From NCBI RefSeq assembly GCF_015547515.1, contig NZ_JADMVE010000001.1:1064253-1088252 (forward strand): a DNA stretch of 24,000 bases. The letters run 5' to 3'. The position numbers and the translations under genes were made by a program. Every line of letters starts with the position of its first letter. Within the stretch, counting starts at the first letter, position 1. Shown piece by piece: positions 2,985 through 22,587 of the stretch. This DNA comes from Eubacterium sp. 1001713B170207_170306_E7 (GTDB lineage: Bacteria > Bacillota > Clostridia > Eubacteriales > Eubacteriaceae). The notes beneath the pieces are model-generated. The model saw only the letters and a program-made list of their open reading frames with translations, had not been told where the DNA came from and ran no database searches.

Positions 2985-3010
2985 CAAAAAAGCCCCCGGC
3001 GAACCGGGGA
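2985..3010 (-). terminator. rho-independent terminator of pstS
   Basis: CCCCGG (2994-2999) pairs with CCGGGG (3004-3009) across a CGAA tetraloop. TTTTTT follows on the minus strand (plus-strand A-run 2985-2990). Confidence 0.7.
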
Positions 3011-3032
3011 CAAGGGAAGGTGGAGAGCTTAT

Positions 3033-3884
3033 TTACTGTTCGAGCGCAACCTTGATGCCGCCTTCTTTTTCAACAATGGTCTGACCTTCATCGGTCATTA
3101 AGAAGTCTAAGAAAGCTTTTGTCTGGCTGTTAAGGCTGTCTGTTTTATAAACTGCCAGAAATGGTCTGGATACTGGGTAGCTCTTGTTTACAACATTATC
3201 GACAGTCGCTTCGACATTATCGACGGTTACTTTTTTAACGGTATTGTCTACAAAGGTTAAGGATACATAGCCAATGGCGTTTTCATTTCCGGCGACGGTT
3301 GACTGTACATTTCCGTTACCTTCCTTGATGGTAGCGTCCGGTTTTAATTTGTCTTCAAATTTTAACAGCTCTTCGACAGCAGAACGGGTACCGGAGCCAT
3401 CTTCTCTGGATACGACAACGATCGGCGCGTCATTTCCGCCAAGCTGGCTCCAGTTTGTAATCTCGCCCGTATAAATCCCGGTTAAATCCGCTGAGCTGAT
3501 GTTGGTCACCGGATTAGACGGGTGTGTGATCATGGCGATGCCGTCATAAGCAAAGACCAGCTCGGTCAGACCAGATTTTTCTTCATCCTTTAATTCTCTT
3601 GACGCACAGCCAAAAGCGTAGGTGCCTTCCGTGGCGCCCTTGATACCGTCTGATGATCCGGTACCGCTGTATGTAAATTTGACATCCGGGTTCTGGGCCG
3701 CAAACTCATCGCCTGCCGCTTCAATGATTTTCTGGACCGAGGTGGAGCCCCCGCCATTGATTTCACCCGAAATGGCCGCCGAGGAGCTTCCTGTGCTGTC
3801 TCCCCCGCCGCTGCATCCTGCAAATGCAAATGTTCCGACCACTAAAGCCATGGTCAGGCCTGCTAAATGTTTTTTTAATCCCAT
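3033..3884 (-). CDS. pstS: phosphate ABC transporter substrate-binding lipoprotein PstS
   Basis: 283 aa. Signal peptide with lipobox FAGC. It carries the PstS-family motifs GGGSTSV, SGTGSS and DGSGTR. AAAGGAGAAG RBS. Confidence 0.9.
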   Translation of the reverse strand: MGLKKHLAGLTMALVVGTFAFAGCSGGGDSTGSSSAAISGEINGGGSTSVQKIIEAAGDEFAAQNPDVKFTYSGTGSSDGIKGATEGTYAFGCASRELKDEEKSGLTELVFAYDGIAMITHPSNPVTNISSADLTGIYTGEITNWSQLGGNDAPIVVVSREDGSGTRSAVEELLKFEDKLKPDATIKEGNGNVQSTVAGNENAIGYVSLTFVDNTVKKVTVDNVEATVDNVVNKSYPVSRPFLAVYKTDSLNSQTKAFLDFLMTDEGQTIVEKEGGIKVALEQ

Positions 3885-4195: not shown

Positions 4196-5452
4196 CTAAC
4201 ATACTTTGCTAATTACATCTTTCATATGCTGATCTTCTTGTTCATTTATTAATGTTACGATTTTATTTGGAATTTCATCCTGAATCTTTTCTTCGACATG
4301 TGCGTAAATATTCATTGTTGTATTAATATTTCCATGTCCCATATACTCCATGATCTCTCTTGGAGAAAAAAGTGGACTTCCATCTTTAGTCCGTGCATTA
4401 ATCATCAAAGAACAGCATGTATGTCTTAAATCATAAAAGCGAATCTTCCGAAATCCATTTCGCACAAGAACACTTTGAAAATAACTGCTTACTTTTGTTT
4501 CAAAGAAAGTTTTGCCATTTTCTTGTAGAAAAACAAAATCATGTTCCTGTTTTACATAACAGTTTCCATAATATCTTTTGTTAGCTTCTTGATTCTTTTT
4601 TACATTTTTGAAAATTTCGACTGCCTCTTTTGAAAGCTTAAATGATCTCCTACTGAATTCATTTTTTAATGCATCTTTGTACACCATCCGACCGTCTACC
4701 TGAACAGCACTGAAATTGATATCCATTCTTCCTTGTTTTAAATCAATAGACTGCCATCTTAAACCTAATAGCTCACTCGGCCTTAGACCATAATTTATTG
4801 CTATGTAAACCATGGGATACAGATAAAAAGGCCTAACAATATCTAAAACTGGTCTAACCTCATTAATTCTTAAATAGTCAAAACTACTTTTAAAATTCTT
4901 AGGATTATTTTTAATCTTATTTGGAACAATATACCTTGCTCTCTGATAAGGATTTTCTGTTATTAATTCATTTTCAACTGCTACGTCTAAAATACTTTTC
5001 AAAACACTTCTAATTGTTCTAACAGTCCTTGGATTTTTTCCTTCTTTAAATAATTGTTGGTAGAAAAATTCTAAGTGTCCTTTCTTTACTTCTCCTAAAG
5101 TTAACTTTAAAGGTTTGAAAATAGGAATAACATTTACTTTTATAATATTTTGATATCTCGCTATCGTGACTTCCGCATAACGAAAAGCATTTTCATCTAT
5201 CCATTTTAACGCATAATCTACAAATAAGATATCACAAGATGTGCAGAGTGAAAGTTCAAGTTCCCTCCGCTTTTCCTCAACTAATGAAGCAAGCTTATTC
5301 TTTTCCCGATCACTTCCGGTTTTTACCGGAATACCTGTTTTTAACCACGGCTGTTTTCTCTTTCCATCACCATCCTTATAATCACAGACCACATACCAAA
5401 AATTATTTTTCTTTTGCAACGTAGCTTTTACTTTAAATTCTTGCTTTTTCAT
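4196..5452 (-). CDS. int: tyrosine site-specific recombinase / integrase (Tn916/phage-integrase type)
   Basis: 418 aa with an AGGAG RBS. The N-terminal WYVVCDYKDGDGKRKQ segment looks like an arm-binding domain. Catalytic signature: R in GLRPSELLGLRW, H-x-x-R in LRHTCCS, and H...Y in MGHGNINTTMNIYAHV. Confidence 0.92.
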   Translation of the reverse strand: MKKQEFKVKATLQKKNNFWYVVCDYKDGDGKRKQPWLKTGIPVKTGSDREKNKLASLVEEKRRELELSLCTSCDILFVDYALKWIDENAFRYAEVTIARYQNIIKVNVIPIFKPLKLTLGEVKKGHLEFFYQQLFKEGKNPRTVRTIRSVLKSILDVAVENELITENPYQRARYIVPNKIKNNPKNFKSSFDYLRINEVRPVLDIVRPFYLYPMVYIAINYGLRPSELLGLRWQSIDLKQGRMDINFSAVQVDGRMVYKDALKNEFSRRSFKLSKEAVEIFKNVKKNQEANKRYYGNCYVKQEHDFVFLQENGKTFFETKVSSYFQSVLVRNGFRKIRFYDLRHTCCSLMINARTKDGSPLFSPREIMEYMGHGNINTTMNIYAHVEEKIQDEIPNKIVTLINEQEDQHMKDVISKVC

Positions 5453-5515: not shown

Positions 5516-5698
5516 TTATGCTTTACCAACGTTGGTATACTCGATCACTGCCGCTTTTTGAATAATCCAGTGTCCTGTCCAGTCTTTTTTAGCTTTTATC
5601 TGACCACTTTGCAGCAAGCGATAAGCTTTGTTTTTTCCGATCTTTAACATTTTCGTTAAATCTTGTACTAAAATAATATCGTCATATTGATTAAACAT
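5516..5698 (-). CDS. xis: excisionase / MerR-superfamily HTH_17 DNA-binding protein
   Basis: 60 aa with a GGTGG RBS, immediately upstream of int. LVQDLTKMLKIGKNKAYRLLQSGQI resembles the excisionase-type winged HTH. Confidence 0.8.
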   Translation of the reverse strand: MFNQYDDIILVQDLTKMLKIGKNKAYRLLQSGQIKAKKDWTGHWIIQKAAVIEYTNVGKA

Positions 5699-6439
5699 TT
5701 TAATACCACCTTTAAGAGTGATTTGTTATCTGAAATATTATTAGCCGGTTTGCCATACACCACCGGCAAGGCATTATCTGGATAAGGTTTTGGGTGAAAA
5801 AACCACGAAAGCAAAGCGAATCCATCTTTCTTCACTCCATATCACAAGAAGTGCAGCACGTAACCGTCGCATTGCCCTCTCTCCAGCGTCATCGCGAAAA
5901 ATCTACCACGATTTTTTTATAGCCATGGTTCATCGTCAAGCGCCCATTCTAACGTCGCTCCATGCCGGATTAAGGGTTTTACCCAGATAATCTTCATTCA
6001 GTTTTCAAAGACCAGGAAAACAATTGCTTCCAATCTGAAAGTTTTATTCGATTATAATCTTTAAAACTCCCTCTATATATACAAAGGAAAAAAAAGCATT
6101 TTTTAAACTAAATTTTTAAAAAAACGTCAAATTTTATTTATTCTTTAAGACTTTTTTAAGTTTTCTTGTTATGCATCATTTTTGAATATTCGTTCTCATA
6201 TTTTCACTTATGTCTGTTTCTAAAAATAAACAACTCCACAAGACAACATTTCATACTTGACTTTTTGTTGTTATCGTTATAAGATTATGCTAAGAAAACT
6301 TATGTTTGCCAATCATAAACAAAAGTTCTTTCACGCTTTTATGCCAACAATGAATTTATGTCTGGATAAAAATTAATAAGTGAGGTCCACGATGTTGAAC
6401 GTTTCTACAAAACAACTCTCACCTGGTACATCAGGGGAA

Positions 6440-7895
6440 ATGTCTGATCACATTTATCTCTGCATAGATTTAAAATCATTCTATGCCTCAGTGGAATGTG
6501 TTGAACGTGGTCTTGATCCTTTGACGACCAACCTGGTTGTCGCTGATGTGACGCGTACTCAGAAAACGATCTGCCTGGCTGTCTCCCCTTCTCTGAAAGC
6601 CTATGGCATTCCCGGCAGGCCCCGTCTTTTCGGGTTGAACAAAAATTAAAAGCAATCAAATTGCGAACAGGCGAGGAGATTGCCTATATTACCGCGTCTC
6701 CAAGAATGCAGCTTTACATTGACTACAGTGCCCGGATATATGCGATATATCTTCAATTGTCTCTGAAGAGGACATCCATGTATACAGTATCGACGAAGTT
6801 TTTATGGACTTAACCCATTACCTTTCGACCAATCGCAATAAAAACGGACACCCCATAACTGCTCGCGAGCTGGCAAAAATGATCATTCAGGACGTTTGGG
6901 CAGCTACGGGTATCACCGCTACTGCTGGTATCGGAACCAACCTTTATCTGGCCAAAATCGCTATGGATATTGTGGCAAAACATGTCAAAGCAGATTCAGA
7001 CGGCGTTCGGATTGCCGAGCTCAATGAAACAAACTACCGACAGCTTCTTTGGGATCACCGCCCGCTCACGGATTTCTGGCGTATCGGATGGGGCATTGCC
7101 AAAAGGCTTGAAAAAAACGGGCTCTACACGACGATGGGAGATATCGCCAGAATGAGCTTACAGGGCGCTGACACAAACGGGTATGGTGAAAATCTGCTTT
7201 TCAATGAATTTGGCATTGACGCAGAACTCCTCATTGATCATGCCTGGGGAATTGAACCCTGTACCATGGCCGACATCAAAAGCTATAAGCCCAGCACGCA
7301 CTCTATTTCCTCCGGGCAGGTGCATTCCCATGCCTATGATTTTGAAAAGGGACGGTTGATCGTCCAGGAAATGGTGGAGCTGCTGGTGTACGATCTGATT
7401 GAAAAAGGGCTGTCGACGTCCAGCGTAACCCTGCATATCGGCTATGATAAGGATGGCTTAAAAGAATCTCATTACCGCGGAGGAATTCACATGGATCATT
7501 TCGGGCGTGCAGTACCAAAGCCGGCGCACGGCACCGAAAAGTTAACCGACGCTGGTGGCCAAACGATCTACAGTCATTCAACCAAGAAAATTATGAACGC
7601 TGCCCTTAAGCTCTATGACCGAATCATTGACAGGAAGCTCATGCTGCGAAGGGTTTCTCTGACTTTCAATGATGTCGAAGCCACTGCTGACCATAAGGTA
7701 ACCTGTCGACAAGTCAGTATGTTCGCAGAAGATATCCTGGAAAAAGAGCAGGAAGCTCAAGAGCAAAGGATACAGCAGACGCTGCTTCAAATAAAGAAGA
7801 AATACGGAAACAATGCTATTTTCAAGGGCATGAACCTACAGGAGGGCGCAACGACGATGGAACGAAATCTTCAAATCGGTGGTCATAAAGCTTAA
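6440..7895 (+). pseudogene. Y-family (DinB/UmuC/ImpB-like) DNA polymerase gene interrupted by two apparent 1-nt deletions
   Basis: The N-terminus MSDHIYLCIDLKSFYASVECVERGLDP is in frame 2. VEQKLKAIKLRTGEEIAYITASPRMQLYIDYSARIYAIYLQ runs from 6634 in frame 1. VSEEDIHVYSIDEVFMDLTHYL... runs from 6759 in frame 0 to 7895. The shifts fall at about 6632-6633 (G-run) and about 6757-6758 (T-run). Confidence 0.8.
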
Positions 7896-9148: not shown

Positions 9149-9868
9149 ATGAATGTAATATTATGTGATGATGACCCTGGCTTTCTTAACGAGTTAAAAG
9201 ACGTACTTTTGCCTATTTACAAAAATGAGTACCCCTCAGCTAAAATAAGATGGTTTTTTAATGGGAATGATCTACTGTCATGGTATACACTTGAAGGCAA
9301 TACCATCGATATTCTTTATATCGATGTAGAGATGCCTGGATTTAATGGAATTGATGTTTTAAAATCCCTTCGCAATAACGGCTGTAAATGTTATTCTGTA
9401 TTCATTTCTTCATATATCAGTTATGTTGAGACCGCTCTGGATTATGATATTGTTCATTATTTAGTAAAACCTCTAAATATAAAAAAGGTTAGAGATGTCA
9501 CTAATAAAGTCATTTTAAAATATAAAAAACAGCATAAATGCATAGAACTCTCTTCAAATAATAAGCATTCATTAATAGAAGTGCACTCAATCATTTATGT
9601 AGAATCAAATTTTAGGTCCCTTATTTATCATACAACTCAGGGAAATTATACTGTGAATGGGAAGATATCTGATATTGAAAATAAGCTGATCCCTTACAAT
9701 TTTCTTCGCACACATAAAAGCTATCTTGTAAACATGGATTATGTTTTAAACTACGAGGGCTACAAGTTTAATCTTTTAGATGGAATGACTGCTGATATCA
9801 GCCATACTAAACGCTCACTGATCATAGGAAAATACAAACAATATTTATATGATAAACTTATCAACTAA
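9149..9868 (+). CDS. agrA: LytTR-family response regulator (AgrA-like)
   Basis: 239 aa with a GAAGGAG RBS. REC domain (ILCDDD..., phospho-acceptor context ILYIDVEMPGFNG). C-terminal LytTR domain (FLRTHKSYLVNMDYV). Confidence 0.9.
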   Translation: MNVILCDDDPGFLNELKDVLLPIYKNEYPSAKIRWFFNGNDLLSWYTLEGNTIDILYIDVEMPGFNGIDVLKSLRNNGCKCYSVFISSYISYVETALDYDIVHYLVKPLNIKKVRDVTNKVILKYKKQHKCIELSSNNKHSLIEVHSIIYVESNFRSLIYHTTQGNYTVNGKISDIENKLIPYNFLRTHKSYLVNMDYVLNYEGYKFNLLDGMTADISHTKRSLIIGKYKQYLYDKLIN

Positions 9869-9875
9869 CTAAGTT

Positions 9876-9925
9876 ATAAGGCGGGTGATACAATAAATTG
9901 CATCACCCGCCTTATTTATTTTTCG
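9876..9925 (+). terminator. rho-independent terminator after agrA (abuts the agrB stop)
   Basis: ATAAGGCGGGTGAT (9876-9889) pairs with ATCACCCGCCTTAT (9902-9915), followed by TTATTTTT. Confidence 0.7.
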
Positions 9926-10494
9926 TTAAATAAATAACCTGCCAAAGCAAAGAGAGCGATTATTAACAGCGATGTGCTAATTGAATATAAATATTGGTAC
10001 AATGTAGTCCCTAAAACTAAAATCATAGAAATACATACATAAACCACTGATCTTAACCATAATTTTTGTCTCTTTCGACAAATCTCATCATCAGAGTAAC
10101 TTGCATTTTTATGCTCTACCGGAGCAATTTTCCATACAATAAAAAAATAAAGAATTTGGTAGATAATAGATAATAAAGTATAAGCATTTCTAGGCGTATA
10201 TTTTATTGTCAAAATATACACGCAAAAGACTAATACTGTTTTTATTGAACAGTTTAGTCTATTTTTCGCATGGTAACTTCCAGTTAAACCACTTAATGAG
10301 ATATAGCAAACAAAATATATAATCGTTTGATACACATGTGAGGTTAATATACCAATACCTAACATTACTAAAAAATTTACCAAAAAGAAAATTATTTGCT
10401 CCATCCCAAACATAACGATTTGTTCATTTTCTGCTCTGATAAGCCTAAGTTCTTTGCACTTATGTGCAAAGCTTAAAGCTACTTGTGTAATCAT
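9916..10494 (-). CDS. agrB: AgrB-like accessory gene regulator B (membrane endopeptidase that processes AgrD)
   Basis: 192 aa and polytopic. The GSYHAKNRLNC motif has His and Cys 7 residues apart, the same spacing as the catalytic His/Cys pair of staphylococcal AgrB. Its start codon overlaps the agrD stop. Confidence 0.85.
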   Translation of the reverse strand: MITQVALSFAHKCKELRLIRAENEQIVMFGMEQIIFFLVNFLVMLGIGILTSHVYQTIIYFVCYISLSGLTGSYHAKNRLNCSIKTVLVFCVYILTIKYTPRNAYTLLSIIYQILYFFIVWKIAPVEHKNASYSDDEICRKRQKLWLRSVVYVCISMILVLGTTLYQYLYSISTSLLIIALFALAGYLFNEK

Positions 10495-10661
10495 AGATCT
10501 TTAATTGAAAAATTTTCTTTGGCTTTTGGTATCTCCGGTTGGTATTTCCAAATTAAACACGTGTCACCTGTTTGCAATACAGTAAATATTAATGCCGACA
10601 TCACTGCCATTCCTTTAAAAAAGATGTTATTAGCTACTTTTTTAAATTTTTCCTTTTTCAT
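10491..10661 (-). CDS. agrD: AgrD-like autoinducing peptide precursor (56 aa, not in the ORF track)
   Basis: Hand translation of the minus strand gives MKKEKFKKVANNIFFKGMAVMSALIFTVLQTGDTCLIWKYQPEIPKAKENFSIKDL. An AGGAGGAG RBS lies 7 nt upstream. There is a single Cys core followed by a YQPEIPK charged tail. The TGA stop overlaps the agrB ATG (ATGA). Confidence 0.75.
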   Translation of the reverse strand: MKKEKFKKVANNIFFKGMAVMSALIFTVLQTGDTCLIWKYQPEIPKAKENFSIKDL

Positions 10662-10742
10662 GTGATTACTCCTCCTAACTATATTTTACATCTTAAATAT
10701 ATAGCTTTATATTCTTTAAAGCAATATTCTATGCATAAAAAT

Positions 10743-10794
10743 AAAGTTTAGTGTAAAAATCATAAAGTTCCTTAAAGCAGAAACAGTGTATAAT
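10743..10794 (+). promoter_or_regulatory. candidate LytTR (AgrA) direct repeats plus -10 upstream of agrC
   Basis: AAAGTTTAG (10743-10751) fits the LytTR consensus [TA][AC][CA]GTTN[AG][TG]. AAAGTTCCT (10764-10772) starts exactly 21 bp later. TATAAT lies at 10789-10794, and the -35 position is occupied by the second repeat. Confidence 0.4.
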
Positions 10795-12109: not shown

Positions 12110-12199
12110 ACTTTAGATACAGAGGCAAACTTAAAATTGGATAATTATTCATATCCACCACATGACAAAGCTTATACATCGAGATGAAATCAATAATTT

Positions 12200-13330
12200 T
12201 TAACACTTTATGATTTTAAAAAACGATCATCAAAGTATTCAAAAACTTGGCTATCTTGGAAATTGATAGACTTTGTATAATTGGATCAATCCCCGTGTTT
12301 ATCAACCTGAAATTTTAGAAAGCAGGTTTGAGAAAACAAAAATGGCTCTTGCTGATATCACAAATTATCTATATCCTATAGCTAATGTCGATTCCTAATT
12401 ATTGATAATATAACATGTAATTAGGGCTCTATTGACAAACATATTTTTTATGTAATCGAGTCTTAAATTAATTAAGAGTATGAACTCCTCAAGCTCAAAA
12501 TAGAGAATGCCTATTTAAAAGACAATGCTTAAGCGAAGATCGCTTCTGAAAATACGGCGAGAATCATCCAAAGTTTTTGAGAAGCGTTCAAACTGAAAGA
12601 CAATCTCGCTGCAATCGGTTTTTTCGCAGATCTAAACAAGGAATTAGCGAACAAAATACCCAACCTACATAAGGAACACAAATATTTCGGCCATCGCCGT
12701 ATGCCTGCAATTATTCGTAAACAAGAAGCGCGGATTAACAAAAAGAATTTCCAAAGAATGATGTAATAGCATAATACTCAAGTAACATTCTTTATACGGA
12801 AAAGCCGTAAATACAATTTCTACAAGGGAAAACAGGACAAATTACTCCGAATAGAATTCATCAACGTTTTCTTACCTCTGTTCCACATCAGAAGATCTCG
12901 ATAAATGCTATAGAATTCAAGTATTATAAGATAGTTGTATTCAAGCCCTTTCCTAGATATATTCAATGGAGAATTATTAGGCTATGGCATCATCAGAGCC
13001 CTATTTGTAGTCAATATATTGTTTTCACAAAAACAAGCTATTGAAATCACTTCAGACTGTCTGTACAGAAGTATCTTTCACTCAGACTACAGATAAGTCT
13101 TGCCTACGCTTGTGTATTGAGAAACAACAAAATTTTCCAAAGCATATCTTGTAAAGGAAACTGTTGTAGAAAATTTATTTGGCATTTTAAAACGGAAAAT
13201 ATATTATGGAGTCACTTACTATAGCTTTAAGGAGTTGAAAGTGCAATCAAAGAATGTATAAAATACTATAACGAAAAACGTCTCAAAGAGAAATTAGGCT
13301 AAGCGAGTCCGGTTGCAGACAAACTTAGCC
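12200..13330 (+). mobile_element. degenerate IS3-family (IS150-like) insertion sequence remnant
   Basis: Transposase motifs are scattered over several frames with many stops: TLYNWI, LKIENAYLK, GHRRMPAII...INKKNFQRMM, YKGKQ.., ITPNRIHQRF..SVPHQKIS, CKGNC and YYNEKRLKEKLG. Confidence 0.7.
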
Positions 13331-13439
13331 TCTTAGCTACATAAAATGCATAACAGATTGAAATTCTATTGCATAATAAAAGCCTAAATTGGGAGATTGC
13401 ATCAAAAAGGCTGGTCTGAAAAAATTGAAAAGTAAGGGT

Positions 13440-14230
13440 GTTAGTCCGAAAGTTCAAAAGAAGCTAGATCATCCCAGATCTTAGCATAATAACGGCGAAG
13501 GAACTTATTCATCTCAGCGGTTATTTATAGTGGTAAGGTTTGCCTTCAGTGCAGTTACGATCAAGCAATTAGTTGAGGAGTGAATCGGCACTGGCAAAAG
13601 CATCCAGCGTCTGTTTGTGCTTGAAACGCAATGGATCACCAATCTCACCCATAAGCTGAGAGCCGAGTGATTCACCAACACCGGATATTGCCATGACAAC
13701 CGGATATTCTGGAAGCAAGGTTGTAAGGCGGTTTATTTCAGAATAGTTTGCAAGTGCATACATGTTCGTGGTGTTCGTTTGCTTAAAACAATACCCCTGA
13801 TGCCTGCACCATTTGCAGTAACACTTGGTAAAGACTTTCGGGATGTCTTTACGAACGTGGTCCGCATTCCAGAAGATATAAACGAAATCTACATATTTTT
13901 GAGTACCATCTTTATGTATTGGGCTATCAAAGCACTTACGAACACCGGAAAGGGACGGCTTAAGTAGAGCAATAAGGTTCGTTTTTCTACTATGACTCTA
14001 TTTGGAACAGACAATTTAAAGGTTTTAACCCATAACGTATGGTAGTCACAGTGGTATAATCTCGCAAGTCTTCACAGTTGGCAAGGGTATAGTAGTCTTC
14101 ATCGCGTTCGTCTTATCGGTCTTAACTTTGCGGAGAGTTCTGCTGTTGAGATTTATCTGAAACACAGTTGAACGGCGAAGTCCAGAATATTGCTTTTTCA
14201 CTAGACACTACCGATACGTGGTATGGCACT
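13440..14230 (-). mobile_element. degenerate IS110-family transposase remnant
   Basis: Minus-strand fragments RKVKTDKTNAM (N-terminal DEDD domain-like) and ISGVGESLGSQLMGEIGDPLRFKHKQTLDAFA (transposase_20-like), interrupted by stops and frameshifts. Confidence 0.7.
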
Positions 14231-14413
14231 CTTATTTATATTGAAATGCTGTTACAATTTTTGATCTATTCTTTATAATATCCATATAATTTTTAATATT
14301 TCATTTTCAGTAACGTGTATAACTATTTTTATACATTTTTGTTATATAAATTCTCATCGTTTCTAAAAAATGTAAATGCAAAGTTTTTTATTCTTATGTG
14401 TATTGTGATTATT

Positions 14414-15049
14414 TCAATTTATAATTTTTTTATCTTTTATTTGATATATTTCATCACATAATATTGATATATCTTTTGAATTATGACTTGTAAATATTAA
14501 TGTCCCACCGTTATCCACGTATTTTAATAATATTTCATATATCAAATCAACCGTATCACTATCTAGCCCATTCGTTGGTTCATCCAAAATTAATAATTCT
14601 GGATTTTCGAAAATAGCCTGTGCAATTCGAAGTTTTTGTAGCATTCCTAAAGAATAATCTTTAACTTTTATTTCGCTATACTTATCAAGTTTAAAAGTAC
14701 GTAAAATGTCTTGGATTTGTTTTTCTGTTACAACATTTTTAATTTCTGATATTATTTTCAGGTTTTCGTACCCGGTTAAAGATTCAATAAAAGATGGATT
14801 ATCTATTACAATACCTGAGTTTTGTATAAACTGTATATCCCTTCGAATTATAGAATTATTATACTTCACTATCCCCTCATCTAAACAATAAAAACCAACA
14901 ATCAATTTAAGTAAAACACTTTTTCCTGATCCATTATTCCCTATAATTCCATATTTCTTTCCACGAATAACTTTTAAATTTATATTTTCTAACACAATTT
15001 TGTTATGAAATGACTTCTTACCATCTATAATTTCAATTAAATATTTCAA
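14414..15049 (-). CDS. ABC transporter ATP-binding protein
   Basis: 211 aa. TTG start behind a GGAGA RBS. Walker A GNNGSGKS, signature YSLGMLQKL, Walker B LLILDEP, H-loop TSHN. Confidence 0.9.
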   Translation of the reverse strand: MKYLIEIIDGKKSFHNKIVLENINLKVIRGKKYGIIGNNGSGKSVLLKLIVGFYCLDEGIVKYNNSIIRRDIQFIQNSGIVIDNPSFIESLTGYENLKIISEIKNVVTEKQIQDILRTFKLDKYSEIKVKDYSLGMLQKLRIAQAIFENPELLILDEPTNGLDSDTVDLIYEILLKYVDNGGTLIFTSHNSKDISILCDEIYQIKDKKIIN

Positions 15050-15148
15050 TTTATTTTCTCCTTAACACTTTATATGATATTGTACAGTATCTAGTCATAA
15101 CAGTAGCGGTTCAATTTCTTTATTTATAATTATATGAATCTTATACTT

Positions 15149-15739
15149 TTAAAAATTTAGGTCTGTTAATTTAATTATTTTATGCAATACAATTGCAATA
15201 GTAAATGTAATGATATAAGATATTGATATGCAAATAGTGTTCATTCCAAAGTAAGAGGTGATAAATATAAAGGGTGTCGGAACCGCGAGTATCATCGATA
15301 TAAAAACATATACTAAAAGAACAATTAACGTTTTAATCTTACCGTATTTTATGAATAACAATGCTTCTAAAAATCCAAAAAGGTTCATATTAACAAATGT
15401 AAATAGTGTAAAATATAATAGATCCTGTATCGAGAGTGGTGCAATTTTTGTATTGAGTATATTTCCAAAATAGTATGGAAAAACACATAAAATTATTACA
15501 AAACAACTAAGCTTTAAATTTTTTTTTATTGAATATTTATAATAACTTTTTAAAGTACCATATCGAATTAAAGAAAAATAACGACTCATTTTAGGAGGAA
15601 AAAAATTACAAATAATAAAAATGCCATATATAATTAATGTACTAAAAAAAATACTAAAAAACCAAGTTGGTTTTGTAATGAAACCTAGTAAACCAAAAAC
15701 TAACCATGTTAATAAACCAATCCTTTTATTAATAGCCAT
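15149..15739 (-). CDS. small polytopic membrane protein (putative ABC-2/LanG-like permease subunit)
   Basis: 196 aa with about 5-6 hydrophobic helices and a GGAGAGG RBS. It overlaps the upstream gene by 11 nt. No family is recognised by eye. Confidence 0.65.
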   Translation of the reverse strand: MAINKRIGLLTWLVFGLLGFITKPTWFFSIFFSTLIIYGIFIICNFFPPKMSRYFSLIRYGTLKSYYKYSIKKNLKLSCFVIILCVFPYYFGNILNTKIAPLSIQDLLYFTLFTFVNMNLFGFLEALLFIKYGKIKTLIVLLVYVFISMILAVPTPFIFITSYFGMNTICISISYIITFTIAIVLHKIIKLTDLNF

Positions 15740-16538
15740 CTATATCGCCTCTCCTTTTTAGATATCTTTGAATATATGCAACAAAAATAATCGGTGGCAC
15801 AAATGGAAATAATATTACCCATAATGGTTGACCATTCTGATATGAAGTAAATGATTGAATAATTGTCGGTGATAAAGCAAAGACTTTAAAACAAATACCG
15901 AAAATTATTGAGAAAATATAATAATACAGTAACGGAATTATTATTGATAGGTATTTCTTTTTTGTAATGCACACAATAGAATTAGAAAAAAGGCTATATA
16001 TGAAACAAAATACGAAATACTTAAGGATTCCTTCTATAAAATAATACATGTATAAATGCTCCGTTGAAAAATTTTTTCCAAATATAAAATCAAATGAAAT
16101 TCTTGGTATTTCAGTATAATTCTTAGTAACAAATATACCAATGATGAAAAAAATCAAATATGCAATTAGAAATGTCAAGGCAGTATAAAGTGCATTAATA
16201 AAAAGTGCTTTACGAATAGTTTTTATATAGGTTTTATTTCTAGAAAAACAGTATATAAAATAACCTTCCTTTTCTTGATAAAAACTTAATGATAATATAG
16301 AACAAAAAATAGGTAAAATTAGCATGGAATAATTAAACGATGTACTAATATAACTATCAAAGTTAAGATAATGCTCGAGTAAAAATATTTTATTATCAAT
16401 GCCATCGTTATCGAAAATTATTCTTAATAAATAAAAATCATAACTACTAAATAAAGATAAAAAGGTTCCAATCAAAAAGCATAAAAAAAGAGTTACTCTA
16501 TACTTGTTTATTATCCGATATTTTGAAATTAATTTCAT
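15729..16538 (-). CDS. polytopic membrane protein (putative ABC-2/LanE-like permease subunit)
   Basis: I chose the ATG at 16538 (MKLISKYR...) behind an AAGAGG RBS. About 6 hydrophobic helices. It is translationally coupled to the next gene. Confidence 0.65.
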   Translation of the reverse strand: MKLISKYRIINKYRVTLFLCFLIGTFLSLFSSYDFYLLRIIFDNDGIDNKIFLLEHYLNFDSYISTSFNYSMLILPIFCSILSLSFYQEKEGYFIYCFSRNKTYIKTIRKALFINALYTALTFLIAYLIFFIIGIFVTKNYTEIPRISFDFIFGKNFSTEHLYMYYFIEGILKYFVFCFIYSLFSNSIVCITKKKYLSIIIPLLYYYIFSIIFGICFKVFALSPTIIQSFTSYQNGQPLWVILFPFVPPIIFVAYIQRYLKRRGDIDGY

Positions 16539-16667
16539 AGTGCAAACCTCTTTTGTATAAAATATATTATAGTATAAAATGAAATAGAGCATATCTACTA
16601 AAGTCTAACTTCTTTACTTGTAATCCTAAAAATATAGTATTTGAAATTCTTACTCTAGCTTTTATGG

Positions 16668-16708
16668 TTTTTAAAAATCACAAAGAGAGCGAAAGTCACT
16701 CTCTTTGT
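16668..16708 (-). terminator. rho-independent terminator between the secreted-protein gene and the ABC genes
   Basis: ACAAAGAGAG (16680-16689) pairs with CTCTCTTTGT (16699-16708). TTTTT follows on the minus strand. Confidence 0.8.
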
Positions 16709-16716
16709 AAAACCTT

Positions 16717-17259
16717 CTAAAATGGAGACCAGGTGCCTTCACAATACTCATAAGAATCCCAGCTATTTTCTCTGACAAACATCATTTGATAAGCGTAGTT
16801 CTTTGTTGCTGTGGACCATCCAGAGTTTGCTGATTGAGCGGCAACTTTGCACGCACCTCTTGCATAACCATCTGAATTAAGTAAATTTGTAACTAATACC
16901 AATGAATTCCCACCGGTTGCGTATTTGAAAGTTACATAATACTCTTGAGTATCCTCTTGTTTTGTTTGAAATGTACTGTAACCACGGTTTGTACCACTTA
17001 CTTGTCCGCTCCACGAATGTACAAACCACATTCTAGGAGAAATTGATTCGTCAAAAATTTCATAGGTTTCCTGACCAGGATTAGCCTCCACAACATCTTT
17101 GATCTTTTTATCTAGATCTGGTTTATCGCCTAAACCTTCGGAAATAATCGGCTGCTCCATTTTGTCTGGACTTTGAACTTCCATTTCATTAGCAAATACT
17201 GGTACAGCAACAAATAAAGCTAACAAAAGTGTGCTAACGCTAACAATTAACTTTTTCAT
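16717..17259 (-). CDS. Sec-secreted protein of unknown family (candidate bacteriocin/toxin-like effector)
   Basis: I chose the ATG at 17259. Signal peptide MKKLIVSVSTLLLALFVAVPVFA with a predicted cut before NE. An acidic ~55-aa linker precedes a ~110-aa W/Y/G/S-rich C-terminal domain with two Cys. Confidence 0.7.
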   Translation of the reverse strand: MKKLIVSVSTLLLALFVAVPVFANEMEVQSPDKMEQPIISEGLGDKPDLDKKIKDVVEANPGQETYEIFDESISPRMWFVHSWSGQVSGTNRGYSTFQTKQEDTQEYYVTFKYATGGNSLVLVTNLLNSDGYARGACKVAAQSANSGWSTATKNYAYQMMFVRENSWDSYEYCEGTWSPF

Positions 17260-17373
17260 TTTAGTATCCTTTCTATGAATTAAATACAAATATCCAATAT
17301 TAGGTATTTATTTTACATTTCAATGGAATCACCTTCTTTTTTTTGAGTAATTACAAATTAATTTGTTGATTGC

Positions 17374-17402
17374 ATTATATAACGATTACATTCAATACTC
17401 AA
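17374..17402 (-). promoter_or_regulatory. sigma-A-type promoter candidate for the secreted-protein gene
   Basis: The minus strand has TTGAGT (plus-strand coordinates 17397-17402), a 17-nt spacer, then TATAAT (17374-17379). Confidence 0.45.
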
Positions 17403-17427
17403 CAGCCTTTTATCGAACGCAATATAT

Positions 17428-17500
17428 CTTGTAACAAAAAGATAATAACTTATAATAAAGGACTTGTTAACAAAACTAGCTTTTCGTTTTTTGTTACATC
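17428..17500. promoter_or_regulatory. array of three TTGT-N(1-2)-ACAA palindromic motifs upstream of the -35
   Basis: TTGTAACAA at 17429-17437, TTGTTAACAA at 17464-17473 (a perfect 10-bp palindrome), and TTGTTACA at 17491-17498. The outer pair form a perfect 11-bp inverted repeat, TGTAACAAAAA / TTTTTGTTACA. Confidence 0.4.
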
Positions 17501-18404
17501 TAAAATAGCAATACCCTATAAACGAATGGTTGATCTTCGGTTGATTCTGTAATCATGACTAAAGTGTTGCTTGTTAGATTTTGGTACAGCATAAAATCAG
17601 AAAGTTAGGATAGAGATTCAGTCAAATTTTACATATCGTTAGCTCTTTAGACTATATTTAGAGGATATAGTACAGAATCATTCTGTATATAATCGGAGCC
17701 ACTGTAGACGCTTTTATAATGATGTTTTTTATGTTCGATTTCCACTGAAATTGTAATGAAATATATTGAATTCGATTTTGTGACGACTGAAGAAATTATG
17801 GCGGATGATACTTATCTGCTGTAAATGACGTTCAATAACTCATTCAAGACAGACCGTATCGAAAGGAATGTAGCGCTATCTGGATGCTTTGGATTAGGAA
17901 TTTTCGAAGCAGACTGGCTTTAGTAACCCGAGACAGGAGTCAGAGAAGTAACGGTACAAATAAGTGCAACAGATAGAGATTGTTGTTGTATCAATCAGCA
18001 TTATAAAAAATTAACTAGATGTTTCATGGAAGGGACTATAGATTGTTATTGTTGCATCATAATGGAAGGCCATATTTTTCTACAAACTAAAGGCGCTTAT
18101 GTTTAGCTGAGCCCACCCGAAAGCTAAATAAGAATAAAAGATACAGGATAAAATGAAAGAATTAACGGACCTATTCGTTTAAACAATAAGCAATCAATAA
18201 AAATATTTTAGCAAGAGTAACCTTTATCCTTATAGGGTCATTTTAACTATTTCTTTTTACTTCTTCTTCAGTAAATCTTTGTTTGTATATATATAATAAT
18301 TTTATAAACAAATATATTTTTATAATTAAAATATTAAATTCAATTTTTTAAAAAAGTCGTCTTTTTTTGATAAACAAAAAAAGAGAAAAGCCATCTCCTG
18401 TTTA

Positions 18405-19045
18405 AAAAGGACGAATTAAAACGGAATGTCAAAGAGTTGGTCAATACAGATGCCTTGGTGCCTGAGAACCATTTGCTGCGCCATATTGATCAGACCGCTG
18501 TCTTTACTTGTGTTTATGACTTTGTTGAAGGGCTTTATTGTCCCGATAATGGTCGCCCCAGTATGGAGACTATGGTGCTTGATTAAGATAGTTTTGATCC
18601 AACATCTTTATGGCCTTCCTTCGCTGCGCCAGACCGTTCGAGACATTGACATGAACATTACTTATCGGTGGTTTCTGGCGATTCCACTCAATAAACCCAT
18701 TCCTCATTTTGCAACCATCGACTATACGTTCAGACATCAGTTTACTAAAAAGGTAGTGGAACAAGTCTTTACCTGGATTTTATTCGAAGTGGAAGCCGCC
18801 GGTTATCTCAAACCCGAGGTGGGCTTTGTGAACCCAAAACCAACGCCAACCTGAAAAAAGTCAGTAAAGCCATTTTCGGCGCCGCAAACCCTATGAGAAA
18901 CAGCTGTTCGAAGAAGTCAACCAGGATCGGGTGATCAACGCATCGACAACGGATCCGGAAAGCGAAGTTTTCCATAAAGGCAAGCAACGCCAGTGCTTTG
19001 CTTACAATGTACACACCGTATGTGAGAGAAACAACTTTGTGATCT
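18405..19045 (+). mobile_element. truncated, frameshifted IS1182/IS5-like transposase remnant (N-terminal part only)
   Basis: LVPENHLLRHIDQTAVF..YDFVEGLYCPDNGRPSMETMVL is followed by a frameshift, then IKIVLIQHLYGLPSLRQTVRDIDMNITYRWFL...PHFATI. Later fragments are STTDPESEVFHKGKQRQCFAYNVHTVCERNNFVI. Confidence 0.7.
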
Positions 19046-19260
19046 GAAAATCTTTCCACTCCTTTGTTTCTGTATCTTTTTCTTAGCAGGTTTTATTGAT
19101 TGAGTAATCTCCAAAATTGTATAATCAGATAACTCGTTTTTCATAACTTTTTCTCTTTTTTAAATCAACATTTTGTCTTATGATTCTTTTGACATAACTA
19201 TTTAATAATTATTTTTTCATGATTATCATACTAATCTAAAATTTCCTGGATTCCACAACC

Positions 19261-19689
19261 TTATCTCATTTTTTTATCAGCTTTTGAGGATATATTCCGG
19301 ATATAACCATAATCATGTCCTAATTCTATAGATATTTCAACTAAGCTTTTCCCTAAATAACGATGTGCATAGAAAACTTTTTTTTCTAAACTTCCCATAT
19401 GATTAATTGCTTCTTCTATCGTTTTTTTTGTTTTATTTAATAAATAAATTTCTCTGTCTTTTTCTTCGATTTTTTTTTGTAATAAACATATTTCCTGTTC
19501 AATGGAAATTCGTTCTTCAATGTGCTTGTAAGAAATAAATTTTTTCTTTTCAAATAACCTTTCTTTTCTTCTTATATAGCGATCTTTTTCAGCTTGCTGA
19601 ATTGCTAATTCCTGTTTTAAATCTACTATATTTATATCTTTATAAGTTTTGCTAGGCTTTTCTTTATCCTTTTTTTGCCGCATATTCAT
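19261..19689 (-). CDS. coiled-coil protein with C-terminal sigma-70 region-4-like HTH (phage late-regulator-like)
   Basis: 142 aa. LEKKVFYAHRYLGKSLVEISIELGHDYGYIRNISSKADKK resembles a sigma region 4. The RBS is weak. Confidence 0.55.
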   Translation of the reverse strand: MNMRQKKDKEKPSKTYKDINIVDLKQELAIQQAEKDRYIRRKERLFEKKKFISYKHIEERISIEQEICLLQKKIEEKDREIYLLNKTKKTIEEAINHMGSLEKKVFYAHRYLGKSLVEISIELGHDYGYIRNISSKADKKMR

Positions 19690-20501: not shown

Positions 20502-22382
20502 CTAAATTAAATAATCTGTTGTAATCCAAACATCAAAATTCCCTGGCGTTAGACCCATTCCTGGTACCTTTGATGTATATCTAAAATAGTAAATTTCGCC
20601 ATAGACAACGCTGAAATGCACCTCGCTTGTTCCACCATTCGATATAGAAATAAAACCTAATGTTTCTCCTGTACTGGCGCATACTAATTCTAATTCGCCA
20701 ACCCCACTTGTGTTATTTGAAAAGTAATCAGCATGAACACGCATACCTGTTGCTAAAACTCTAAATCCACGTCCACTACCACTTGTAAATTGTTTTAAAC
20801 TACCCAAGTAAGTATAAGAGTCACCGTCACGGATATTTCTGGTTGCTGCCTCAACAAAAACAGGATTGCTCAATAAACTTGTAACAGCTGGATACTGTCC
20901 TGAATAAGCCACCTTGTCTAAATCCCAATTATCAACACTATATTCGTGAAATTGATCATAAGTCCAATTATCGGGAATTCTGTAACCCATATTACCGCTA
21001 TAACCTGTAGACATGTCACTAACAAAGGAAGTAACTGCATAATGATTACTGATTACTGCACGACTCGTTGCTCTAGTTCCATAAACACCAATTTTATAGG
21101 GTGATCCTAATGTATCCATCTTGTCTTTCAGTGCCTCAAAATATGGCAAAACGGTACTGTTAATCATATCTTCTGTAGCATCAAAATCGACAGCGAAAAA
21201 TATTACATTACCGCTTGGAATTCCGTGAACATTCGCTTGATGAACTGCTGTTTCCGCATCACGCCTTCCATTTTGTTCTGTAAAGTATTCTAGTGCCGCC
21301 TCAATGTTACCGGGAGATTCCTGAAAAATCGGAAAGAATTGAACTCCTGCCGATAAGATTCTTTGCGGCTCGCCCATTCTAAGTTCTTTAAAATCTCCAC
21401 CAGTAAGATATCTCCCTACAATTTGGTGACCTTGTGAAAGAATATACTGTAATCGCCCTGTTGTCATCTCAAAACGCGTATCACAGGCCAAACTACCTCG
21501 ATCTGGATTTCCTTTACTTAATAATAAAGACATCCAGGTATTGACATCTACTGTGCCTGTTTCTGGTAAAGCTAAATCACTTTGGAATTCGGTAATTTTA
21601 GCTGCTAATGCTGAATCCCAAGTTGAACTCAGTATGTTGACATCATAACCATTGCATACCAACGCATAGCGTGCAAGAAATACTGCTTCACTATTACCCG
21701 AAGACGGTAGTAAAATATGAATTAAATTTGCTTTCGTTCCATCTCCAAAATTTCCAGTCGCATCTTCAACACTATATCCTTCAATAGCTTGGAGAACTTT
21801 AATCATCGAGTCATTCATTTTGCGTCCATAAAGACCATCGCAAGGCGATAATCCAATATAATTTTCATATTTTGAATTTAACGTCCGTTGTATTGCCGCA
21901 ATTTGTATCGTACCACCATAGTCACTCAATACTTTAAATTGATCCATTGATAATAGCGCTTTCATAACGTTTAAAGTAACTGTACCATTTGTCGCATTAA
22001 TCCCAGCGTCTTCTTTTAATTCCATCACACCAGCAGCAGTTCCAGATCTGAAAAATTTGGTAATTTCACTGGTTCCCGTAGAATATCCTTTACACCATAA
22101 CCCGCACTGAATAATTCCATACACATTATTCAGTGTTTTATCGTTGTCTTCTTGTGGCACAACTCCATTTGGGTATCTTTGCTTGAATTTTGAAATTGTC
22201 CCATCACCAAAGTTATCTGCAGTCTCTTGTATTCCTAATTCAATCTGCAAAGCTCTTATCAAACCATTTATTGTTCCCCAACCGGTTTGTCCATCTTCAG
22301 TTACTGTTGGAAATCGATCGTAACCATAGCTTCCATAATTTGAATTCAACCACATTTGTGATTTTTTTACCATTGCATCCAT
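20502..22382 (-). CDS. leaderless multidomain cell-wall protein: PG-binding-like repeats, DUF1906 (Rv2525c-like glycoside-hydrolase fold) and an unknown C-terminal beta-rich domain
   Basis: I chose the ATG at 22382 behind an AGGAAGGAAG RBS. Repeated ...GxxGxGT...L(I/Q)xxLG... modules are followed by GRYLTGG...FPIFQ...VIFFAVDFDA...IGVYG, which is typical of DUF1906. There is no signal peptide. Confidence 0.75.
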   Translation of the reverse strand: MDAMVKKSQMWLNSNYGSYGYDRFPTVTEDGQTGWGTINGLIRALQIELGIQETADNFGDGTISKFKQRYPNGVVPQEDNDKTLNNVYGIIQCGLWCKGYSTGTSEITKFFRSGTAAGVMELKEDAGINATNGTVTLNVMKALLSMDQFKVLSDYGGTIQIAAIQRTLNSKYENYIGLSPCDGLYGRKMNDSMIKVLQAIEGYSVEDATGNFGDGTKANLIHILLPSSGNSEAVFLARYALVCNGYDVNILSSTWDSALAAKITEFQSDLALPETGTVDVNTWMSLLLSKGNPDRGSLACDTRFEMTTGRLQYILSQGHQIVGRYLTGGDFKELRMGEPQRILSAGVQFFPIFQESPGNIEAALEYFTEQNGRRDAETAVHQANVHGIPSGNVIFFAVDFDATEDMINSTVLPYFEALKDKMDTLGSPYKIGVYGTRATSRAVISNHYAVTSFVSDMSTGYSGNMGYRIPDNWTYDQFHEYSVDNWDLDKVAYSGQYPAVTSLLSNPVFVEAATRNIRDGDSYTYLGSLKQFTSGSGRGFRVLATGMRVHADYFSNNTSGVGELELVCASTGETLGFISISNGGTSEVHFSVVYGEIYYFRYTSKVPGMGLTPGNFDVWITTDYLI

Positions 22383-22587
22383 TTTAACAACTTCCTTCCT
22401 AAATTTTTTCAAAAAGTCTTTCAAAAATATTTTTGTACTAGCACACCTTAATATTACCCTGTTTATAGAGCGCATTCAAGTATTTTACCCTATTTTTATA
22501 TCAAAATGTAATCAACGCAAATAATCATGTAACTAAGTTCCAATTAAACTTCGCTGTAATCTATCCATTTAGTTCAGTTCCATAAAC

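Follow-up and report, generated by a model that had tools for sequence, protein, structure and literature searches.

Does the agr locus in this stretch of DNA have its own autoinducer gene, and is that gene placed ahead of agrB? The stretch, hereafter the window, comprises 24,000 nucleotides of Eubacterium sp. 1001713B170207_170306_E7 (contig NZ_JADMVE010000001.1, positions 1,064,253 to 1,088,252 of the forward strand), and all positions given below are those of the window. A preliminary description, made from the letters and a list of open reading frames (ORFs), had proposed a short hidden ORF on the reverse strand as an AgrD-like precursor, translationally coupled to agrB in reversed gene order. 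The analysis showed that 10491-10661(-) is a genuine gene under purifying selection. From comparative sequence evidence it is read as agrD, encoding an autoinducing-peptide precursor and paired with AgrB, with a probability of about 0.9. All four Agr components are intact at the locus, namely agrD, agrB, an AgrC-like sensor histidine kinase, and an AgrA-like response regulator (Table 1). The locus belongs to well-known Agr signalling, as a divergent addition to it rather than a system of a novel type. Related loci are cited below by their L numbers.

The reverse complement of 10491-10661 translates as MKKEKFKKVANNIFFKGMAVMSALIFTVLQTGDTCLIWKYQPEIPKAKENFSIKDL followed by a stop codon (56 codons), which reproduces the base-by-base translation given earlier. 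It was also reproduced that this ORF is missed by the 60-aa cut-off and that the sole ORF of at least 60 aa called at the position is the antisense one, 10483-10665(+). The ribosome-binding site that had been placed 7 nt upstream of the peptide ATG was confirmed as AGGAGGAG at 10676-10669(-), with the spacer TAATCAC leading to the ATG at 10661; the GGAG core of this Shine-Dalgarno (SD) sequence is kept across the alleles and in L019. The ATGA overlap of the peptide gene with agrB was likewise confirmed at 10491-10494, and suggests that translation of agrB is coupled to that of agrD. In the peptide, a basic N-terminus and hydrophobic leader (residues 1 to about 31) precede the core, which is located around Cys35; the charged follower is YQPEIPKAKENFSIKDL. 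The leader begins with the basic MKKEKFKK, after which a hydrophobic stretch covers residues 12-37 (Kyte-Doolittle window). The basic and hydrophobic leader pattern is kept across the peptide family despite varying sequence, and the AgrD-type layout of the preliminary description (basic leader, Cys, charged Q-P-x-x-P tail) is supported by the family alignment.

A word-indexed search with the peptide returned a single match cluster (95% identical). Because the single-peptide search matched only one cluster, the family was approached by way of AgrB homologues and the contigs carrying them. Four clusters of AgrB, 81-93% identical, led to 16 metagenomic contigs, all of which (16/16) contain a 56-codon ORF with the identical 4-nt agrB overlap, in six allelic forms. 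A search with an alignment of eight AgrB sequences added no more than a distant genome locus (L021) and a fragment from the human gut (L022). The exhaustive HMMER search delineated an AgrB clade of approximately 12 representatives at 30-41% identity, with other family members below about 30%. The contigs of five clade representatives (L017, L018, L019/L020, L023, and L024) have an ORF of 53-58 aa directly upstream of agrB, and the same was found in the P0160 loci L032-L034, reached by the peptide profile. In total, an ORF of 53-58 codons occupies the agrD position in 25/25 related loci retaining DNA upstream of agrB; these loci represent 13 distinct peptides and an AgrB identity range of 30-93%. 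The distance between the agrD stop and the agrB start is always tight across the clade (-4, -1, 0, or +2 nt), and two of these upstream ORFs are absent from the source annotation. Loss of the ORF or of its Cys in close homologues, named in the preliminary description as a reason to give up the assignment, was not seen, both being kept in 25 loci. The peptide profile had no match among viral contigs, nor the cassette DNA among plasmids.

The variable sites among the close alleles are distributed as 15, 9, and 29 over codon positions 1, 2, and 3, respectively. The pairwise ratio of nonsynonymous to synonymous substitution rates (dN/dS) among the close agrD alleles is 0.05-0.35, and 0.05-0.23 for the closest pairs. 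In the 13 distinct peptides, Cys35, Trp38, Pro42, Pro45, Ile53, and Leu56 are invariant; Phe26 and Gln30 are nearly so (Gln30 is replaced by Gly in P0160), as are Gln41 and Phe51, with one exception (L024). The family consensus core is D-T-C-[LFI]-[IVL]-W-x-[YHN]-[QE]-P-x-x-P. The antisense ORF 10483-10665(+) was considered as the true gene and rejected due to in-frame stops in L001, L006, and L014.

Assignment to the AgrD family was assessed with profile hidden Markov models (HMMs) against NCBIfam, in which the curated cut-off of TIGR04223 is 19 bits. TIGR04223 was the top family for all of the subfamily members first tested (9/9). Four lineages score above the cut-off (L018, 28.9 bits; L024, 29.0 bits; L023, 25.3 bits; and L019, 20.2 bits), and L017 (17.2 bits) and P0160 (16.4 bits) score below it; annotated AgrDs score 42.6-48.5 bits on this model, compared with 13-29 bits in the subfamily. 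Using hhalign, the subfamily profile was aligned to annotated AgrDs (from the P. bifermentans plasmid, C. difficile pHSJD-312, and phage CDMH1) and the L021 peptide with a probability of 91.5% (E=8.4e-7). This alignment pairs ...DTCLIWKYQPEIPK... with ...NKTCLWYNHQPKVPK..., the Cys and QPxxP being in register, and the comparison with clostridial AgrDs suggested in the preliminary description thus turned out in favour of it. The Cys aligns with Cys/Ser of the annotated AgrDs, and [YHN][QE]P begins five residues later. In the follower Q41-P42-E-I-P45-K, the family-wide invariant residues are P42 and P45; P-x-x-P has been described as an AgrB-binding feature (Hargreaves et al. 2014).

Several observations weigh against the assignment. 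The window peptide itself has TIGR04223 as its top match with 14.9 bits (E=0.022, residues 26-47, including Cys35 and QPEIP), which is below the cut-off, and neither this peptide nor any subfamily member matches the Pfam AgrD model PF05931. No subfamily member bears a name in public sources. As regards the circuit set out below, co-variation of sensor and ring was seen in a single allele. The repeat AACTTTAT, a candidate regulator site between agrD and the kinase gene, is presumably unlike the S. aureus AgrA box, and 17% of shuffles give one match of this type (at most two mismatches) in 24 kb. The HMM check proposed earlier came out mixed, being positive on TIGR04223 for four orthologous lineages, top but sub-threshold for the window peptide, and negative on PF05931. 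The latter result says nothing against AgrD because control clostridial AgrDs miss this model too: PF05931 is described as 'Staphylococcal AgrD protein', and none of five controls (0/5) reaches its cut-off. The window peptide is thus tied to AgrD through its family and not by its own TIGR04223 score, and by this route it very probably belongs to the AgrD family.

The predicted five-residue macrocycle was read from the alignment register. Across the family, ring position 2 is L/F/I, position 3 is I/V/L, and position 5 is K/Q/F/A/H/L, with a constant Trp at position 4. The register of Cys+5 followed by [YHN][QE]PxxP is common to annotated AgrDs (CLWYN, then HQPKVP) and to C. perfringens ([CLWFT]-H), and a ring of five residues is favoured for this reason. 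A C. perfringens core of CLWFT followed by HQPEEPK had been named in the preliminary description; the ring [CLWFT] with H as the next residue (CLWFTH) agrees with the literature (2025 Primer), and the onward QPEEPK was not confirmed. Slightly better than even chances are given to a CLIWK ring in thiolactone form. The predicted [M+H]+ values are 644.359 for [CLIWK], 745.407 for T[CLIWK], 860.434 for DT[CLIWK], 917.455 for GDT[CLIWK], and 807.422 for [CLIWKY]. The alternative that survives best leaves the gene an AgrD precursor and changes its product: the mature signal would not be a tailed CLIWK thiolactone but either a six-residue ring, CLIWKY, or, after a leader cut directly before Cys35 and an S-to-N acyl shift, a homodetic cyclic peptide (cAIP). 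Such an outcome is a tentative possibility, with clearly less than even odds overall. Precedents for it exist, as tail-less thiolactones of clostridia are transient and the true signals are lactams (Molloy et al. 2021), and a ring of six residues is described in C. acetobutylicum, as are rings lacking a tail in C. perfringens and L. plantarum (2025 Primer); moreover, the N-terminal cut site is not readable from sequence. The Cys+5 register shared with annotated AgrDs and C. perfringens speaks for the five-residue ring over CLIWKY.

The reversed gene order asserted in the preliminary description is real. The order agrD-then-agrB is the rule across the whole AgrB clade, though precedents are provided by L021, L030, and, as reported, C. 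difficile R20291. Locus L021 (Clostridiales bacterium strain 16; AgrB 27% identical) is composed of a kinase, a 58-aa AgrD, and agrB with the same ATGA overlap; in L030, a human-faecal scaffold deposited as Bacteriophage sp., AgrD lies about 18 nt upstream of agrB. Both of these peptide-first peptides pass TIGR04223 (38.6 and 40.4 bits, respectively). Of the eight loci outside the clade, D-then-B is the order in two and B-then-D in five, and in one (E. eligens) no peptide was detected. The R20291 locus was reported as agrA, agrC, agrD, agrB, 'the reverse order' of S. aureus (Martin et al. 2013); this conflicts with the notation agrB2D2C2A2 given elsewhere for the R20291 locus (2025 Primer), where agr1 is written agrD1B1. 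The peptide-first order is consequently clade-wide but not unique to the clade. As in many clusters of ribosomally synthesised and post-translationally modified peptides (RiPPs), substrate-first coupling could plausibly set a high peptide-to-enzyme ratio. Two unannotated human-faecal 'Bacteriophage sp.' scaffolds were found to carry AgrB together with an AgrD-like ORF, L030 (MT836496.1, peptide-first, ...NRSCMWYFGQDKMPED...) and L031 (MT835918.1, peptide-after, ...VDCYGWNYQPKRPEA...).

The partner proteins were characterised by their domains (Table 1) and conserved residues. AgrB has about 5-6 hydrophobic segments. Fifteen clade members show no variation at its His75 and Cys82, which lie at a distance of seven residues; we take them to be the catalytic pair, by presumed equivalence with H77/C84 of S. 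aureus, which have equal spacing. The kinase contains multiple hydrophobic segments in residues 1 to about 210. Every related locus whose sequence reaches far enough has the response regulator at the matching position. In L010, the single allele that has a changed ring (CFIWK) and keeps the same kinase gene, the sensor half of the kinase is 73% identical and the kinase half 88%, compared with about 90% for both halves in same-ring alleles; this divergence fits peptide-sensor co-evolution. In relatives carrying a second LytTR regulator, this gene lies at or near the 3' end of the kinase gene (L006 561-1319, L019 651-1379, and L032 3747-4484), directly after the kinase in L032-L034 and further downstream in L006 and L019, and the two regulators are about 36-38% identical. 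By tblastn, no trace of a second regulator, intact or pseudogenised, was found after the window kinase.

The proposed circuit was built by analogy with characterised Agr systems (Molloy et al. 2021; 2025 Primer). The basic and hydrophobic N-terminal leader would take the precursor to the membrane, where AgrB, acting through His75/Cys82, would remove the follower YQPEIPKAKENFSIKDL and join the new C-terminus, most likely Lys39, to the Cys35 thiol, giving the C-L-I-W-K ring; a second peptidase would trim the leader. The secreted peptide would be sensed by the divergently encoded AgrC-like kinase, which would phosphorylate the LytTR regulator. The regulator, in turn, would probably bind the AACTTTAT repeats that lie 21 nt apart in the agrD-kinase intergenic region, which would complete an autoinduction loop; translation would begin with the substrate, and the enzyme would follow through coupling. 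We infer the cleavage sites, ring chemistry, cognate sensing, and regulator site from these known systems.

The intergenic region between agrD and the kinase gene is 167 bp long and holds AACTTTAT twice. This repeat is the only match in the window at two or fewer mismatches (0.17 expected by chance); it was found upstream of agrD in 13 close-allele loci, within the best-conserved intergenic block, which is alignable also in the distant L006 and L019. Direct repeats with 21-nt spacing are the geometry used by LytTR regulators, and the AACTTTAT repeats are a candidate binding site of the LytTR regulator. A possible agrD promoter, TTGCTT-17-TATATT (Table 1), was not called by the consensus promoter scan because its -35 hexamer matches at only 3/6 positions, and that scan called no other for agrD. 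Between the convergent agrB and response-regulator genes, a hairpin with a fold energy of -30.4 kcal/mol was predicted (z=-9.1; 0/200 shuffles as stable), which is kept in L001 and changed there at two loop positions only. As this putative terminator hairpin follows the agrB stop, agrD-agrB would form a two-gene operon. No Rfam match to an RNAIII-like or other known RNA was obtained.

The agr cassette is cargo of an integrase-bounded low-GC island that occurs in human-gut metagenomes. The island extends over about 3.9-23.1 kb of the window, with 24-38% GC compared with about 50% in the flanks; no tRNA match marking an integration site was found at the island junction. The related contigs share a backbone of integrase, xis, Y-family polymerase, small sigma-r4 protein, HTH repressor-like protein, regulator, agrB, agrD, and kinase; one related fragment (L022) is from a human-gut metagenome. 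Scaffold_146 of ERZ28626546 (68 kb) is an example from the samples with the element, and the L019-type peptide P0159 is encoded on a 215-kb contig. No close relative was found in GTDB species representatives, plasmids, phages, or IMG/VR. PHROG matches were obtained for the integrase, the sigma-like and repressor-like proteins, and the 657-aa cell-wall hydrolase (E=1e-207), and they do not discriminate a prophage from a conjugative element; no capsid, tail, relaxase, or coupling-protein genes were found in the window. In L001, the counterpart of the 657-aa protein is a separate 82-aa gene and a 485-aa hydrolase.

The state of the island also bears on a second alternative, that of a cassette in decay, left over on an island that is itself degenerating, with a peptide gene intact by inertia and a circuit no longer functional in the host. 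Signs of decay are present. The Y-family DNA polymerase gene (IMS/UmuC-like, 6380-7895(+)) is split over three frames (ORFs 6380-6649, 6661-6813, and 6804-7895), and is a likely pseudogene because the relatives L001, L006, L014, and L019 keep it intact (499 aa). Fragments of IS110 and DUF772 transposases are found in the window, about 7 kb following the kinase gene (12110-19260) has been replaced relative to the close relative L001, whose genes resume at 19264, and the second LytTR regulator of L006, L019, and L032 is absent. The cassette itself, however, has four agr genes of full length, 90-98% identical to the copies in other samples, a low dN/dS that includes the closest pairs (0.05-0.23), and an intact SD sequence, repeats, and terminator, which makes the remnant very unlikely and leaves agrD as part of an intact circuit the preferred reading. 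Hardly credible is the last alternative, that the agrD ORF is kept mainly as a translational leader loading ribosomes for a poorly initiated agrB, with a peptide devoid of a signalling role: the tight stop/start junction in every clade member and the strong SD on agrD versus a weak AAAGA before the agrB ATG would suit it, but the invariant Cys, Trp, QP..P, and F.I..L across lineages with 30-40% AgrB identity would be unexpected for a pure leader, as would a dN/dS of 0.05-0.35 or an in-register AgrD profile match, and coupling and a signalling role are not mutually exclusive.

Table 1. Positions of the agr genes, their predicted signals, and other island features in the window.
Feature	Position	Strand	Basis or remark
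Tyrosine integrase, island left end	4196-5452	-	
HTH_17 excisionase-like gene, island left end	5516-5698	-	
AgrA-like response regulator, 239 aa, REC and LytTR	9149-9868	+	Convergent with agrB; LytTR E=5.9e-15, Response_reg E=2.3e-13
Hairpin with 18-bp stem, putative bidirectional terminator between convergent agrB and response-regulator genes	9876-9915	.	Fold
agrB, 192-aa polytopic membrane peptidase/cyclase	9916-10494	-	Pfam AgrB PF04647, E=3.1e-28, 98.8 bits (cut-off 23)
agrD, 56-aa autoinducing-peptide precursor (probable)	10491-10661	-	ORF and translation, conservation, dN/dS, TIGR04223, hhalign
ATGA stop/start overlap agrD/agrB, 4 nt	10491-10494	-	agrD TGA 10493-10491, agrB ATG 10494-10492
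Codons C35-L-I-W-K39, predicted five-residue macrocycle	10545-10559	-	Alignment register
Shine-Dalgarno AGGAGGAG	10669-10676	-	7 nt before agrD ATG; sequence
Possible agrD promoter, TTGCTT (-35, weak), 17 nt, TATATT (-10)	10696-10724	-	Read from sequence
Direct repeat AACTTTAT-N13-AACTTTAT, 21-nt period, candidate LytTR regulator site	10741-10769	-	In agrD/kinase divergent promoter region
AgrC-like sensor histidine kinase, 426 aa	10829-12109	+	Divergent from agrD; GHKL HATPase_c_5 E=1.5e-18
IS110-type transposase fragment, ORF-poor stretch	13569-13763	-	
ABC ATPase	14414-15049	-	
Three proteins without family match, one with signal-peptide-like N-terminus	15149-17289	-	Follow the ABC ATPase
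DUF772 transposase fragment	18426-18854		
657-aa protein, PG_binding_1 and Rv2525c-like glycoside-hydrolase domains	20502-22475	-	phrog_15213 (unknown function), E=1e-207

Among known Agr systems, C. perfringens AgrBD (ring CLWFT) is similar in its single Cys, hydrophobic Trp ring, and aromatic or His residue preceding a Q-P...P follower, and its natural CIWFT variant is the same kind of conservative ring polymorphism as that observed here. It differs in the order agrB then agrD, in having no adjacent agrCA, and in using VirSR as the receptor, whereas the ring studied here ends in Lys, has Trp at position 4 rather than 3, and derives from a 56-aa precursor whose longer follower closes with the conserved F-x-I-[KRN]-[DEN]-L. 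The plasmid and phage agr loci of Peptostreptococcaceae (P. bifermentans plasmid NZ_CP079738, C. difficile pHSJD-312, and phage phiCDHM1 agr3) are likewise located on mobile DNA, where genes for a LytTR regulator and a GHKL kinase adjoin them, and their peptides, annotated as 'cyclic lactone autoinducer peptide', show N-x-T-C-x-W-x-x-[HN]-Q-P-x-x-P in register with the profile. However, their gene order is agrA-agrC-agrB-agrD, their AgrB is only 22-28% identical, and their peptides are 37-49 aa long and score 42-49 bits on TIGR04223 against 13-29 bits here. In C. difficile R20291 agr2, taken as agrACDB (Martin et al. 2013), agrD is also ahead of agrB, probably on a single transcript; its kinase and regulator genes are described as lying upstream and reading in the same direction, while here the kinase gene is divergent and the regulator gene convergent. 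The S. aureus agrBDCA system (see also Molloy et al. 2021; 2025 Primer) has the same four components, a catalytic His...Cys pair of AgrB seven residues apart, a five-residue ring, and an acidic follower with conserved Pro-Lys, and its specificity groups are defined by hypervariable ring and sensor regions; it differs in being a single agrBDCA operon with divergent RNAIII and another gene order and orientation. Rc-AIP1 of Ruminiclostridium cellulolyticum is comparable in being a clostridial AgrD/AgrB system detected in the same way, by searching the surroundings of agrB for a short Cys-containing ORF (Molloy et al. 2021); chemical work identified its product as a homodetic cyclopeptide that arises via a transient thiolactone, whereas the product here is a predicted one.

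The clade-wide peptide-first coupling, the extended follower, and the carriage of ring alleles on a mobile island are noteworthy but not categorically new, and the understanding of the Agr mechanism is unchanged by this agrD. The locus adds a small and divergent clade of AgrD/AgrB pairs, which forms 7 clusters at 90% identity and is represented solely in metagenome assemblies. The four-gene quorum-sensing circuit of uncultured human-gut Clostridia becomes experimentally addressable, since the peptide is synthesisable from the predicted core. A blind spot is also indicated: AgrD genes are hidden by cut-offs on ORF length and by a Pfam model centred on Staphylococcus, and peptide-first loci will escape annotators who look for agrD after agrB. 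The ring alleles comprise CLIWK, CFIWK, CFVWK, CLLWK, CLIWQ, CLIWF, CFIWA, CFIWH, and CIIWL, and together with the integrase-bounded island they offer a lead for mobile-element quorum sensing. It is an unlikely, more far-reaching proposal that a family of integrative elements circulates among human-gut Clostridia with the agr cassette as a self-contained module of their cargo, the ring alleles being pherotypes in element-level communication. If so, the element rather than the host would count its own copies and control excision, transfer, or linked cargo, by a logic comparable to phage arbitrium; candidates for such cargo would be the ABC-transporter or radical-SAM peptide clusters adjoining some copies.

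Additional observations were made on the agr loci of other mobile elements. In the Lachnospira/[Eubacterium] eligens megaplasmid NC_012780 (L027 2507-3070), AgrB is tightly flanked by an ABC ATPase gene on one side and by LytTR and kinase genes on the other, and the combined AgrD profile detected no AgrD-like ORF in this 5.5-kb stretch. The P. sordellii plasmid NZ_CP080292 (L028 2423-3148) carries a 241-aa coding sequence annotated as 'AgrD family cyclic lactone autoinducer peptide', in which AgrB and AgrD appear to have been read as a single protein (AgrB match at 2501-2860 and AgrD-like part at 2996-3148); it is located directly upstream of a LanM lanthipeptide synthetase. In L032 (1-1829) and L033 (2-901), the agr cassette is adjoined, across a Transposase_mut gene, by a gene for a 426-aa radical-SAM enzyme and by small ORFs of 42, 48, and 59 aa. 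These three ORFs had no Pfam match. The region is a possible RiPP cluster and a possible target of quorum sensing. The agr locus of the P. bifermentans plasmid is also followed by a radical-SAM gene and an ABC transporter.

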